From a virus (taxonomy: Duplodnaviria; Heunggongvirae; Uroviricota; Caudoviricetes), in the IMG/VR virus record IMGVR_UViG_3300029095_000093: DNA of 7,914 nt, one strand, 5' to 3'. The notes beneath the pieces were generated by a model, which was not told the origin of the DNA, made no database searches, and worked only from the letters and a program-made list of their open reading frames with translations. Made by a program: the position numbers and the translations under genes. Of the stretch, positions 3,521 through 7,767 are shown in pieces (position 1 is the stretch's first letter; the number at the start of each line of letters is the position of its first letter).

Positions 3521-3988
3521 TCATCGAAGGCATTGCGTCCTGATGTATTCCTGAAGCGTTCTCAGTGCTGTTTGGTCGCGGATAATTCCGTCCCGGATAC
3601 CGAGAACGTTTCGTCCAGCAACTGGAGAGAGTTCGATGGTGGCATCATTGCCCATGCCGGAGGCGCTGGAGGTTTCGGCTGAGGATGGCACAGGGCATTT
3701 TCCTTTGACGAACACCCGACCACCATTATCAAGCTTGCGCCGAAGAGCATCATTTTTAGCTTTCGCATCAGCTAACTCCTTCGTGTATTTAGCATCGAGT
3801 GCATCAGCAGCACGCTGGCGCTGCTGCATGTCAGTAATGGTGGCGGTCGCCTGCTTCAGCTCACTGACTTTTTTATCACGCTGTTCTTTATAGGCGATGG
3901 CGTTATCACGATAATGATTGACCGCCCACGACAGGCAGACGATGATGCAGATAACCAGAGCATAAATAATCGCGGCGACTCTGCTCAC
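3521..3988 (-). CDS. Rz i-spanin (inner-membrane spanin subunit), ~155 aa from a GTG start
   Basis: The ORF track starts at TTG 4003, but GTG at 3988-3986 gives [31 protein letters not shown]..., matching the lambda Rz N-terminus (MSRVTAIISALVIC...) and overlapping the endolysin stop (GTGA). N-terminal TMD, coiled-coil region ([21 protein letters not shown]) and C-terminal Cys. Confidence 0.85.
3562..3768 (-). CDS. Rz1 o-spanin (outer-membrane lipoprotein), 68 aa, fully embedded in Rz in the +1 frame
   Basis: ATG at 3768-3766. Signal peptide [19 protein letters not shown] with lipobox VVGC, then a proline-rich mature segment ([18 protein letters not shown]) with a second Cys. Nested arrangement as in lambda Rz/Rz1. 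Confidence 0.8.
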
Positions 3989-4518
3989 TGATCTATCCCC
4001 CAACAGGCTAATGCGCTTTCCTGGTCACGACGAATAACTTGCCCATAGCAGTTATTTGAACGTATGCGGCAATCGCGCCCACCATCTTTTATCCACCAAC
4101 GAATCGCCTCGCATGCCCCCTTACGATCACCGGCATTCAGCCGCTTATAAAACGTCGACGGGAAACACTTACCGGGGCCAATGTTATAGGGACAAAATGA
4201 CGCGATACCCGCTTTCTGGGGTTCGGTCAGCGGCACTTTAATATTGCGCTCCACCCATGCCAGCGCCTTATCCCGTTCAATGGCATTAACCTGGTCGCAT
4301 TTTTCCTTCGACAGCTTCATTCCCGGTATGACGGGCTTACCATCCACCATTGTGGCACCACGACAGATGGTCCATATACCGGAACCATCGCGGTATGCCG
4401 TAGTGTGGTTACCCTCTTTTTCATCCAGAAACTGGTCAAGTATTTGAGGAGCAGACGCGCCTGCAGCAATCAGCGCCAGAACAGCAGCTGACAGGCCGTA
4501 TTTGATTTTTGCGCTCAT
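3985..4518 (-). CDS. SAR endolysin (T4-lysozyme-like muramidase with signal-arrest-release N-terminus), 177 aa
   Basis: ATG at 4518-4516. N-terminal weakly hydrophobic Gly/Ala-rich SAR segment [17 protein letters not shown]. Catalytic E-x8-D-x5-T signature ([16 protein letters not shown]). Resembles the phage 21 R / Qin-prophage lysozyme family, from memory. Confidence 0.9.
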
Positions 4519-4573
4519 GGATATTTATCAGGCTGCTACCAATGAAAGATACTGGAAAGCCAACTGCAAAAAG

Positions 4574-4888
4574 CTAACAACCCGTAATCGAGTTATCAGA
4601 ACTGTTAATTTTTATGGTATACCGCGCCTTTGAACAGGGTCGCGTTTCTGGCAACAGCTCGTCCCCTTCACATAACCCGGCAGCAACATCCAGGAAGACC
4701 TGTCTGATGCTCCTTCTGGCTGCTGCCTCATAAAACTCCAGCGCGGCACCTTCAACACGGTCCAGCGAGATGTCCAGGTCAAAAATTTCACCGTCAAAGC
4801 GTTTTTTGTCCCGTAACGCTAAAGTTACCGTAACTTTATTCTCAAAATTGCGGATCCCTTTCACAATCAGTTCATAGTTTTGAGTCAT
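4574..4888 (-). CDS. Conserved hypothetical protein between holin and endolysin (DUF1327 / Qin YdfR-like), 104 aa
   Basis: ATG at 4888-4886, 4 nt after the holin stop, using an SD (GGAGAG) inside the holin 3' end. The N-terminal ~65 aa (MTQNYELIVKGIRNFENKVTVTLALRDKKRFDGEIFDLD...EGAALEFYEAAARRS) resemble the DUF1327 protein at the same position in the Qin lysis cassette, from memory. C-terminal half not recognised. Confidence 0.6.
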   Translation of the reverse strand: MTQNYELIVKGIRNFENKVTVTLALRDKKRFDGEIFDLDISLDRVEGAALEFYEAAARRSIRQVFLDVAAGLCEGDELLPETRPCSKARYTIKINSSDNSITGC

Positions 4889-4892
4889 TGAA

Positions 4893-5108
4893 TTACTCTC
4901 CCCGTGCAGCCTTACGCTTGTCTTCTTTAATCTTGAAATAAAGGTTTGTCAGATACGTCAGCAAGCCAAATACCAGACTACCCAGCACACCTATTGCCGC
5001 CCACTGTGAGGGCGTGACTTTATCGAGCAACTGTAAAAACCAGTACCCGGCACTACCTGCTGAGGTGCCATAGGCGACACCCGTTGTTAACTTATCCATG
5101 GATTTCAT
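4893..5108 (-). CDS. Class II holin, phage 21 S-like pinholin, 71 aa with dual-start motif (Met1/Met4)
   Basis: The track ORF starts upstream at 5171, but ATG at 5108-5106 has an SD (GAGGTGGGG) and gives [71 protein letters not shown], near-identical in pattern to S21 as I recall it. Two TMDs and a charged C-terminus; MKSM is the holin/antiholin dual start. Confidence 0.85.
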
Positions 5109-5141: not shown

Positions 5142-5169
5142 GGAAATAAAAAGGCCACCTGACGTGGCC
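5142..5169 (-). terminator. Rho-independent terminator just downstream of the methyltransferase gene (minus strand)
   Basis: Stem GGCCAC (5153-5158) / GTGGCC (5164-5169) with a 5-nt loop. On the minus strand the hairpin is followed by TTTTTATTTCC (rc of 5142-5152). Begins 7 nt after the methyltransferase stop and about 35 nt before the holin start. Confidence 0.6.
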
Positions 5170-5175
5170 ACCAGA

Positions 5176-6228
5176 TTATTTCCCCACCAGCTCGTTTATC
5201 TCTTTCACTGTCTGGTTAAACCGCTCTGACTCAAGCTCAACACCTAAGGCCCGACGCCCCAGCGCCATTGCTGCTTTTATTGTGGAACCGGATCCCATAA
5301 AAAAATCAGCAACCAGATCACCTGGTCGACTACTGGCATTGATTATTTGCCTGAGCATATCCGCCGGTTTCTCACACGGATGTTTCCCCGGGTAGAACTG
5401 AACGGGTTTATGCATCCAGACATCGGTATAAGGCACGGAGACTGATACGGAGAAATAGCGCCGGAGAGATTTAAACTCATCCAGCAATTCAGAATATTTG
5501 CGATTCAGTGAATCATAAGATGCCACCAGCTGGTGGTGTGGTTGTTCCAGTTGTTGTTCCTGAAACTTCTCTGCCGCTATACGGGAAAACAGTGCCTGTA
5601 ACTTCCGATAGTCAGCCTCATTCGGCAACTGCCACTGACTGGCACCAAACCAGTGGGAAACCATATTTTTCTTACCTGTGGCTTCGGCAATTTGTTTTGC
5701 CGTTATACCCAGTTCGGCACGAGCATCCCTGAAATACGATATCAGCGGTGCCATTATGTGCTGTTTGAGTTCCCTTTCTTTTGCCGCATAGCCGTCACTT
5801 TTGCCGCGATATGGCCCCTGGTAATGTTCAGCAAACAGAACGCGCTCTGTGGCAGGAAAATATGCACGCAGACTTTCTTTATTACACCCATTCCAACGTC
5901 CGGACGGCTTCGCCCAGATGATATGGTTAAGCACGTTGAAACGTTCACGCATCATGATCTCAATATCAGATGCCAGGCGATGCCCACAGAACAGGTAAAG
6001 GCTTCCGGCAGGTTTTAACACCCGCCAGAACTGGGTCAGACAGTGGTCCAGCCACTTAAGGTAATCTTCGTCCCCTTTCCACTGATTGTCCCAGCCGTTG
6101 GGTTTCACCTTGAAGTACGGCGGATCGGTAACAATCAGGTCAATGGAATCATCAGGCAGGGACTGAATAAAATGCAGGCAATCAGCGTTGATTAAATCAA
6201 CACTGTTTATTTTTACAGTATTTTTCAT
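5176..6228 (-). CDS. Orphan DNA methyltransferase, beta-class, probably N6-adenine, 350 aa
   Basis: ATG at 6228-6226, TAA at 5178-5176. Motif [12 protein letters not shown] near the N-terminus and motif [10 protein letters not shown] near the C-terminus (IV before I indicates beta class); DPPY rather than SPPY favours N6-adenine. HPCEKP motif as in YhdJ-type enzymes. A ~120 aa insert between the catalytic motifs contains an HTH-like stretch ([20 protein letters not shown]). No restriction endonuclease gene in the window. Confidence 0.85.
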
Positions 6229-6378: not shown

Positions 6379-6582
6379 TTACTGGCAGCGTCTGAATTTA
6401 TTCCCGTACCCGCCGTTATCCTTCGCCAGACCCGCCAGAACTAACTGAGTCAGTATTAACTGGCACCGGGCTTCGCTTACTCCGGTAGTTCTCGTCATCA
6501 TGCGTGGCGTTACCCACTTGTCAGCAGGTAAGAAATGAAGGACTGCGGCGGCGGTTTCTGTCATATCTTGCTGTTTTAGCAT
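6379..6582 (-). CDS. Small hypothetical protein, possible winged-helix DNA-binding regulator (~67 aa from the second ATG; track start at 6606 gives 75 aa)
   Basis: The first ATG (6606) has no SD; the ATG at 6582-6580 has AGAAGGGA 8-15 nt upstream. Sequence ...AAAVLHFLPADKWVTPRMMTRTTGVSEARCQLILTQLVLAGLAKDNGG has the spacing of a small wHTH (FaeA/PapI-like or MarR-like helix-turn-helix-wing). This is only a pattern-level resemblance. Confidence 0.45.
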   Translation of the reverse strand: MLKQQDMTETAAAVLHFLPADKWVTPRMMTRTTGVSEARCQLILTQLVLAGLAKDNGGYGNKFRRCQ

Positions 6583-6704
6583 GTCTTTTTCCCTTCTGGT
6601 TAACATGACATACCAATAACTCTTGTCTAAAAAGCCAGCAAGATAAAAAGTCAGTATTCACGACCACCAGCGTGTTTACTGTACTGCACCAAGTTTACAG
6701 GTAC

Positions 6705-6853: not shown

Positions 6854-7300
6854 ATGAATAAAATGACTGTACTATTACTTAGCGCAACTATCATTTCAGG
6901 TTGTACTTCTTCCGTACCATTGATAAAGAAAACTCAATCAGGAAAACCTGAGGGGGTTTATCAAAATACGACAAAAGATAAAGTCAAAGATGCCCTTGTG
7001 AATTACTGCAATAGTAGAGGGTTGATAATTTACAACGCGGATAACAGCAGTGTTATATGTGGTAAAGAACTGGAAGGCGGCTCTGCTGTTTTTGGACAAA
7101 TGTTAATCGGAAATGCCTATTCAACAACCCCGGTATCAAAAGTCAGATTTACTATCGCTCAAGTTAATAACGATACAAAAGTGTGGGCCGATATGTGGAT
7201 GGAAACTCAAATGGCAATGGGACAAGTACAACAAATGGCTATAACAGACAACGCAAGCAAAAACACTATCCAACAACGTCTTGATGAATTAAAACCTTAA
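6854..7300 (+). CDS. Predicted lipoprotein of unknown function, 148 aa, AT-rich moron on the strand opposite to all other phage genes
   Basis: ATG at 6854, TAA at 7298-7300. Signal peptide MNKMTVLLLSATIISGC with lipobox ISGC; Thr at +2 suggests outer-membrane sorting. Composition is visibly AT-rich compared with flanking genes (about 35-40% GC by eye, not computed). Weak SD. I do not recognise the mature sequence. Confidence 0.7.
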   Translation: MNKMTVLLLSATIISGCTSSVPLIKKTQSGKPEGVYQNTTKDKVKDALVNYCNSRGLIIYNADNSSVICGKELEGGSAVFGQMLIGNAYSTTPVSKVRFTIAQVNNDTKVWADMWMETQMAMGQVQQMAITDNASKNTIQQRLDELKP

Positions 7301-7384: not shown

Positions 7385-7750
7385 CTAACGATCCATCTCT
7401 AGCTCAATTTCTAACATCATTAACATGCCATCAACTACACCTTCAGCCTTTTGCAATAAACGCCCAACCCAGCAATCAGAACGCCCATGTTTACGGGCAA
7501 GCGCCATAAACGTCATACCACCTACATAATAATCCACTAATAAATCGTGCAAATCGCTGTTGTTCTTTTTCAGGCGAGCCATGCACCCACAAATGATCAT
7601 CGCGTCATCGTCACAACATTGCGGGCGGGATTTTACTTTTGAAGGGATTAGTCCTTTAAATCCTGCAGCAATAGACGACCAGGTGACATCCTCGTGATTA
7701 TTTGCCACCCATGCCCCCCAACGTTCAAGAACCATTTGAATATCACGCAT
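7385..7750 (-). CDS. Late-gene antitermination protein Q (small phage 82/21-type Q, DLP12 QuuD-like), ~121 aa
   Basis: The track ORF begins at TTG 7765; the first ATG is at 7750-7748, giving [64 protein letters not shown]..., which matches my memory of the DLP12 Q protein. Cys cluster CCDDD...CGC is consistent with a zinc-binding Q. TAG stop at 7387-7385. Confidence 0.8.
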
Positions 7751-7767
7751 CAACTTTCTCCACAAAA

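Follow-up and report, generated by a model that had tools for sequence, protein, structure and literature searches.

The 104-aa open reading frame lying between the pinholin and endolysin genes of the window (the whole stretch of 7,914 nucleotides analysed here) is an ordinary, intact and correctly identified ydfR gene, which constitutes an insertion placed exactly at the junction of the holin (S) and endolysin (R) genes, present in some cassettes of this kind and absent from others. Purifying selection acts on the frame, the C-terminus of which is a module acquired by exchange. Family, gene and position have all been described and annotated before; as to function, we tentatively favour, at somewhat less than an even chance, a reading in which the window's ydfR encodes an accessory protein that is expressed late, stays in the cytoplasm and acts on RNase E or RNA. 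What is added here is the logic of the insertion at the S/R junction, the modular tail, the sites of homologues outside lysis cassettes, a recurrent convergent partner gene and the scar that this partner has left in the window.

The minus strand of the window carries, in order, a Q antiterminator (7385-7765), an ORF of 75 aa, an N6/N4 DNA methylase (5176-6228, between the 75-aa ORF and the holin), the holin, ydfR, a lysozyme, Rz/Rz1, a DUF1441 small terminase and a gpA-type large terminase. The YdfR-family (DUF1327) frame occupies 4574..4888 (minus), starts with ATG at 4888-4886, stops with TAG at 4576-4574 and encodes a protein of 104 aa, 11.7 kDa and pI 5.2 with no transmembrane domain (TMD). 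Immediately upstream lies an S21-type pinholin gene (4893..5108, minus; PF04971, Phage_holin_2_1 'P21 holin S', E 2e-35) with the dual start MKSM and products of 71/68 aa, the TAA stop of which (4895-4893) is followed by the four nucleotides TTCA and then by the ATG of ydfR. The Shine-Dalgarno sequence (SD) that serves ydfR, GGGGAGAG, is embedded within the final holin codons (4896..4903, minus), with an SD:anti-SD dG of -8.5 kcal/mol. A preliminary description of this DNA had placed a 104-aa ORF at these coordinates, 4 nt from the holin and with its SD inside the holin 3' end; the coordinates and the dG bear this out, and the gap together with the embedded SD confirms the translational coupling to the holin that it proposed. 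It gave no strand, which is minus. Downstream, a spacer of 55 nt separates ydfR from the lysozyme-family endolysin R (3985..4518, minus; 177 aa, SAR-like N-terminus; PF00959, E 1e-24; phrog_7), and Rz/Rz1 lie downstream of R. Just 5' of the endolysin ATG the spacer holds a conserved leader, TGATAAATATCC (4519..4530, minus), which makes a weak ribosome-binding site (RBS; dG -2.8). A scan for promoter-like sites around ydfR gave none above shuffled expectation, and the one candidate from a terminator scan was a weak, G-T-rich hairpin where the gene ends (4599-4574). A strong terminator-like hairpin, GGCCACGTCAGGTGGCC followed by TTTTTATTT, was observed at 5153-5169 (minus), between the methylase stop and the holin start, so that Q-mediated read-through would be needed for holin expression; the 92-aa holin ORF listed from a GTG at 5171 is probably over-extended through this hairpin.

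The product is a member of DUF1327 (PF07041; 132.3 bits against a cut-off of 25, E 7e-39, residues 1-96) and matches phrog_2735 (1.6e-54, spanning 1-104 of 105), in agreement with the identification as DUF1327/YdfR that had been made from the sequence. The statement that the position recurs in Qin-type prophages was likewise correct, K-12 ydfR (Qin) lying directly after the S21-type holin gene essQ. In phage mEp460, the S-ydfR-R-Rz stretch, upstream methylase included, shares 98.4% DNA identity with the window, and the counterpart of the ORF is gp55, a 'YdfR family protein' (YP_007112129). PADLOC and NCBIfam profiles gave no match to the ydfR product. A megablast of the ORF found matches in 4247 of 5426 complete E. 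coli genomes, at up to 8 places per genome. A HMMER scan of 1.84 billion protein representatives returned 77 family members only, essentially from phages of Escherichia, Shigella and Salmonella plus a few uncultured lambda-like phages, and a scan of one genome per species placed ydfR in Escherichia and Shigella only, apart from two suspect MAG contigs. These two contigs, L011 and L013, come from MAGs that bear the labels Veillonella parvula and Bacillota and have Qin-like S-ydfR-R loci, and the L011 tail is that of an Escherichia ruysiae locus (L012) and one residue off K-12; both loci are almost certainly Escherichia contamination of the bins. Genes of the family also occur in Stx-converting phages, where they adjoin the toxin-releasing lysis genes, and yet a single functional study exists.

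The related loci compared, about 95 in number, were drawn from K-12, phage records, 80 IMG/VR contigs and species-representative genomes. Where upstream sequence is available, ydfR is in nearly every case preceded immediately by an S21-type holin, 4 nt away; the exceptions are L062, with an IS insertion, and two loci in which the gap measures 3 and -8 nt. At L062 an IS-type transposase gene (2225-2899) replaces the holin directly upstream of ydfR, and this is the sole holin-less locus sampled. The distance from ydfR to the endolysin, on the other hand, varies, being -4 nt in K-12 (an ATGA overlap with rrrQ), 50-63 nt or 319-452 nt. In phiSTEC1575-Stx2k (L006 2281-4299) an S21-type holin and ydfR are followed not by the lysozyme but by another lysis set, complete and unrelated to the first, of two holin-family genes and an M15 metallopeptidase; thus the pinholin-ydfR pair has been kept although the endolysin module was swapped, and it persists as a unit.

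S21-type holins are found in 438 phage records and the YdfR domain in 101 (about 23%). PA28, a 933W-like phage, has the identical holin 3' end, GGGGAGAGTAA, then 4 nt and then the endolysin ATG, without ydfR, so that the S-embedded SD (dG -8.5) drives R directly. Similarly, in ev099 R begins directly after S, without ydfR. The view that the slot is empty in plain S21-type cassettes therefore holds in both phages. Insertion of ydfR captures the S-embedded SD and leaves R with the weak RBS (dG -2.8) behind a 55-nt spacer. The GC content of ydfR is 0.467, against 0.519 for R.

The conserved N-terminal domain comprises codons 1-74 (4667..4888, minus) and was delimited with AF2 on a deep alignment (A5, 28 sequences, reaching down to 25% identity). 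Residues 1-78 were modelled with a pLDDT of 85.8 as antiparallel strands at 5-14, 18-27 and 34-43 followed by a long helix at 50-73, and AF2 confidence is low for the tail. Across the 28 sequences of the alignment Y53, E54 and A57 are invariant, and Y5, L7 and G47 nearly so. Sequence analysis found no TMD, signal peptide or amphipathic membrane segment in the product, the highest 19-residue Kyte-Doolittle mean being 0.75 with a GRAVY of -0.27 and a pI of 5.2. Searches of the PDB by sequence and by profile gave no match, and a structure search of BFVD with the model gave a best E of 0.016. The sole structural neighbours are generic beta3-alpha units at weak scores (Z <= 7.0), many of which bind nucleic acids; that such units recur among weak matches to a predicted fold is a lead only and does not establish homology.

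The last part of the gene is a C-terminal tail of type A, ending in CEGDELLPETRPCSKARYTIKINSSDNSITGC and the stop codon (4574..4666, minus), which comparisons of dS and dN identified as exchangeable. Over residues 1-72 the window and K-12 proteins are identical at 59 of 72 positions, and the final ~30 residues diverge. The divergence is also seen in the DNA, with an indel of 18 nt (6 codons) and a different 3' end, but the frame is kept and a short tail motif is still visible (YTIKINS versus YSFKIEN). It had been noted beforehand that the C-terminal half differs from K-12; the tail is indeed divergent, but the difference is confined to those last ~30 residues. The accompanying concern that the C-terminus might be frameshifted and the gene a pseudogene did not stand, as the alignments to K-12 and mEp460 are in frame and dN/dS is about 0.25. 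By the Nei-Gojobori method dN/dS was 0.22-0.25 for the N-domain and 0.27 for tail A, the latter against a diverged tail-A allele (L107). At L086 the N-domain is identical (dS 0.02) and the tail unrelated (dS 1.2), and this jump indicates a recombination breakpoint near codon 78. Tail A is the commonest type in the sample of ~95 loci, the cluster carrying the window's tail variant (P0004) has 594 member sequences, and a Salmonella homologue (P0106) keeps tail A with substitutions. In a further set of relatives, namely phage 86 (L004), L005, L009, L013 and P0132, the YdfR N-domain is fused to C-terminal extensions to give 183-287 aa in total; these long extensions belong to at least three unrelated modules with zero Pfam matches. 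The phage 86 fusion is annotated as topoisomerase-like, an annotation not reproduced here.

As to function, the literature search on ydfR/DUF1327 found one functional study, conducted with the K-12 protein (Göpel et al., RNA Biol 2026, PMC13232886). A two-hybrid screen that used RNase G as bait yielded residues 1-72 of K-12 YdfR three times, the two-hybrid signals were stronger with residues 1-597 of RNase E, and Strep-YdfR co-eluted from lysates with Rne 1-598 and DNase-resistant nucleic acid (PMC13232886). Because these lysates were prepared without nuclease treatment, the contact between YdfR and RNase E may be RNA-bridged. Overproduction of K-12 YdfR left growth unimpaired and changed few transcripts (PMC13232886). 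Elsewhere, ydfR overexpression appears as a screening candidate with a threefold increase in streptomycin MIC (PMC12924614). The search found no report of a phage phenotype and no published test of lysis timing after ydfR removal; in most of the papers matched, the name YDFR denotes a melanoma cell line.

For the window copy, an action on RNase E or RNA is what we infer from the K-12 homologue, and its role in the phage likewise; the RNase E-interacting fragment is the very stretch in which 59 of 72 residues are shared, binding having been reported for K-12 YdfR only. A Q-dependent late transcript would yield YdfR together with the pinholin, the two being made side by side because the ribosome-binding site of ydfR is the SD in the 3' end of the holin gene. 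As a small, soluble, acidic and cytoplasmic protein, YdfR would stand outside the holin-endolysin-spanin machinery, and its N-domain would most likely bind RNA, the catalytic N-terminal half of RNase E, or the two together. In this way it could adjust how RNA is turned over once infection is advanced or a prophage has been induced. The gene would then be a portable, 'moron-like' late accessory gene at the S/R junction of Escherichia lambdoid phages. Its C-terminal tail is exchangeable, in many relatives being swapped along with a small convergent partner gene; this partner is deleted in the window, which makes the window's ydfR a 'solo' copy. If the RNase E link is real, it would give temperate coliphages a very widespread route by which to touch host RNA decay late. 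Several points weigh against it, however. The link comes from one study of a homologue that is 66% identical in sequence; overproduction of that homologue had almost no effect on the transcriptome (PMC13232886); an acidic protein is unusual for an RNA binder; and the near-constant linkage to S21 holins in Escherichia could reflect a functional tie and not mere linkage.

A trace of the convergent partner lies in the spacer between ydfR and R. Alignment with L026, which has tail A and an intact 79-aa partner, identified 43 nt of the window (4531..4573, plus) as what is left of such a gene (79-aa family, phrog_21218), namely its 3' end; relative to L026 the window lacks about 315 bp and then continues with TGATAAATATCC-ATG of R. 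Among the 5426 complete E. coli genomes the deleted ('solo') junction was found in 343 and the partner gene in 102. About a quarter of the Escherichia loci have a reverse ORF that adjoins the 3' end of ydfR or overlaps it, the overlap reaching 53 nt, and a reverse ORF of 79-104 aa (phrog_21218, 2411, 2572, 1853) is found in the loci where ydfR and R are far apart.

The same arrangement was met away from lysis cassettes. The 77 family members include stand-alone DUF1327 homologues of 71-94 aa, in which the N-domain stands by itself or carries a short extension, and nine distant homologues were placed on contigs of uncultured lambda-like siphophages. Two are flanked by tail genes M and L, one by L and K, and two follow tail gene I (one of them I/J); a sixth precedes an unrelated holin pair, and for the other three the contig is too short to show the position. 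With five of the nine between tail genes, the domain is not tied to lysis cassettes outside Escherichia. All nine have a reverse-strand ORF immediately 3', in operons that are otherwise unidirectional. A 72-aa DUF1327 subfamily and a partner family of 99-101 aa co-occur after tail M, after tail I and before the holin pair, an indication that DUF1327 gene and partner move as a unit.

These observations raise an alternative, which we regard as unlikely but worth weighing, that the window's ydfR is the orphan half of a mobile two-gene cassette in which DUF1327 is coupled to a convergent small gene and the product or transcript of one controls the other; for example, a partner that the lysogen expresses could be neutralised by DUF1327 protein made late, or by antisense RNA from late read-through. 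Having lost its partner, the copy in the window may then be partly redundant. The invariable reverse ORF of the distant homologues, the joint occurrence of the 72-aa subfamily and its partner at three sites, the reverse ORFs of a quarter of the Escherichia loci and the relic of an F2 partner in the window spacer all speak for such a cassette, as does the purifying selection acting on the partner ORFs (dN/dS 0.12-0.44). Some of the partner families also show weak similarity (F2-F6, Smith-Waterman z 5.4; F2 matches phrog_6806 of F6 at E 0.017). The partners, on the other hand, make up at least three families without detectable mutual similarity, none of which matches Pfam or a defence family, PADLOC giving one weak match only (the L114 partner, E 0.027), and a simple scan of L026 and L009 placed no partner promoter above shuffled expectation. 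Moreover, solo copies are commoner than paired ones among tail-A genomes (343 versus 102) and are still under purifying selection, so that YdfR must have a function of its own, and the ydfR 3' end may merely be a hot spot for reverse-oriented cargo. A single superfamily of partners was also considered and was partly supported only, the F2, F4, F5, F6 and L110 partners being weakly alike and F1, F3, F7 and F8 showing no similarity.

The orphan-cassette reading does not exclude the action on RNase E or RNA, and the two could be combined. DUF1327 would then be the constant half of an undescribed mobile cassette, made up of a beta3-alpha protein that engages RNase E or RNA and a fast-evolving partner placed tail to tail, the two controlling each other, a proposal we consider rather improbable as it stands. 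Were it true, control could be exerted through protein or through an antisense RNA handled by RNase E, and the cassette would hop among the lambdoid late-operon junctions S/R, M/L, L/K and I/J, the window holding a solo copy with a 43-nt scar.

The preliminary description had suggested instead that the gene modulates lysis timing or endolysin release. YdfR, or the mere presence of its ORF, would on this account tune the pinholin/SAR-endolysin pair, either through contact with S21 or R or in cis, the ORF separating R from the strong S-embedded SD and so lowering the R:S ratio. We find this account quite unlikely to be correct. The near-invariant 4-nt S21-ydfR junction across Escherichia loci and the retention of the pair in phiSTEC1575 despite a replaced endolysin cassette are compatible with it, and the version in cis can draw on the RBS of R, at dG -8.5 in the ydfR-less PA28 versus -2.8 plus the 55-nt gap in the window, and on the coupling of R to ydfR through the ATGA overlap in K-12. 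The Keio deletion of ydfR also appears in hit lists for envelope permeability (PMC3879167 supplement), which a polar effect on rrrQ could explain. In contrast, the protein has no TMD, signal peptide or amphipathic membrane segment, overproduction of the K-12 homologue was non-toxic (PMC13232886), three quarters of the phages with S21-type holins do without ydfR, and five of the nine distant homologues reside in tail operons and adjoin no lysis gene. Purifying selection on the protein further argues against a pure spacer role. No positive evidence for a modulator of lysis was obtained, and the solubility of the protein, the lack of toxicity of its K-12 homologue, its carriage in about 23% of the phage records with an S21-type holin and the homologues in tail operons oppose it. 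A decaying or functionless ORF, frameshifted or a fused remnant and retained through linkage to the lysis genes, might be suspected from the defective state of the window prophage (its terL has been joined to the tape-measure end), the tail unlike that of K-12 and the clearly fused or truncated members in databases, but is effectively refuted, and in our estimation highly improbable, given in-frame alignments, the full-length match to phrog_2735, the near-identical gene of the viable phage mEp460, dN/dS of 0.22-0.27 in domain and tail, and the tail kept in Salmonella P0106.

Returning to the preferred reading, an accessory protein acting on RNase E or RNA, several known systems offer points of comparison. 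K-12 YdfR (b1555, Qin) resembles the window protein in following S21-type essQ directly, with the same 4-nt gap and the same embedded SD, but differs in having tail C in place of tail A, with the 6-codon indel, and its gene overlaps rrrQ by ATGA where the window has the 55-nt spacer with the partner relic. In mEp460, gp55 and its cassette are essentially the same as those of the window; mEp460 is a complete phage, whereas the window prophage has lost the genes from portal to tape measure. Small phage proteins that target the host's main endoribonuclease include Dip/gp37 of phiKZ, gp0.7 of T7 and Srd of T4, and these modulators of RNase E present a possible functional analogy to YdfR. Like ydfR, the genes for the S21-71 antiholin, the Mu gp25 releasin and P1 LydB lie in or near lysis cassettes and are expressed along with the holin. 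The membrane is the site of action of the S21-71 antiholin and of Mu gp25. YdfR, unlike such membrane regulators of lysis, lacks a TMD, and most S21-type cassettes do without it; it shows neither the constant presence with a cognate holin nor the membrane segment by which an antiholin is recognised. A closer likeness is to the lambdoid morons (bor, lom, and ant between R and Rz of Stx phages), which, like ydfR, are present or absent at a fixed junction. The family is also moron-like in occupying several late-operon junctions and in a GC content slightly below that of its flanks. Classical morons, however, bring their own promoter and terminator, whereas ydfR borrows the holin SD and the late transcript.

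The surroundings of the cassette show that the prophage in the window is defective. Positions 1-650, which are 99% identical to mEp460-like phages, run from the last part of the tape-measure gene H through gpM into the beginning of gpL. The terL gene (from 649 to 2215) breaks off in its nuclease domain (at about aa 519) and is joined, in frame, to the end of the tape-measure gene, from which we conclude that the portal, head and tail-tube genes have been deleted. Between Q and the methylase lie two ORFs, one of 148 aa on the plus strand (6854-7300) with a lipoprotein-like N-terminus (…LLSATIISGC) and the one of 75 aa on the minus strand (6379-6606); searches of Pfam, NCBIfam and PADLOC gave no significant match to either, and both look like typical moron cargo downstream of Q.
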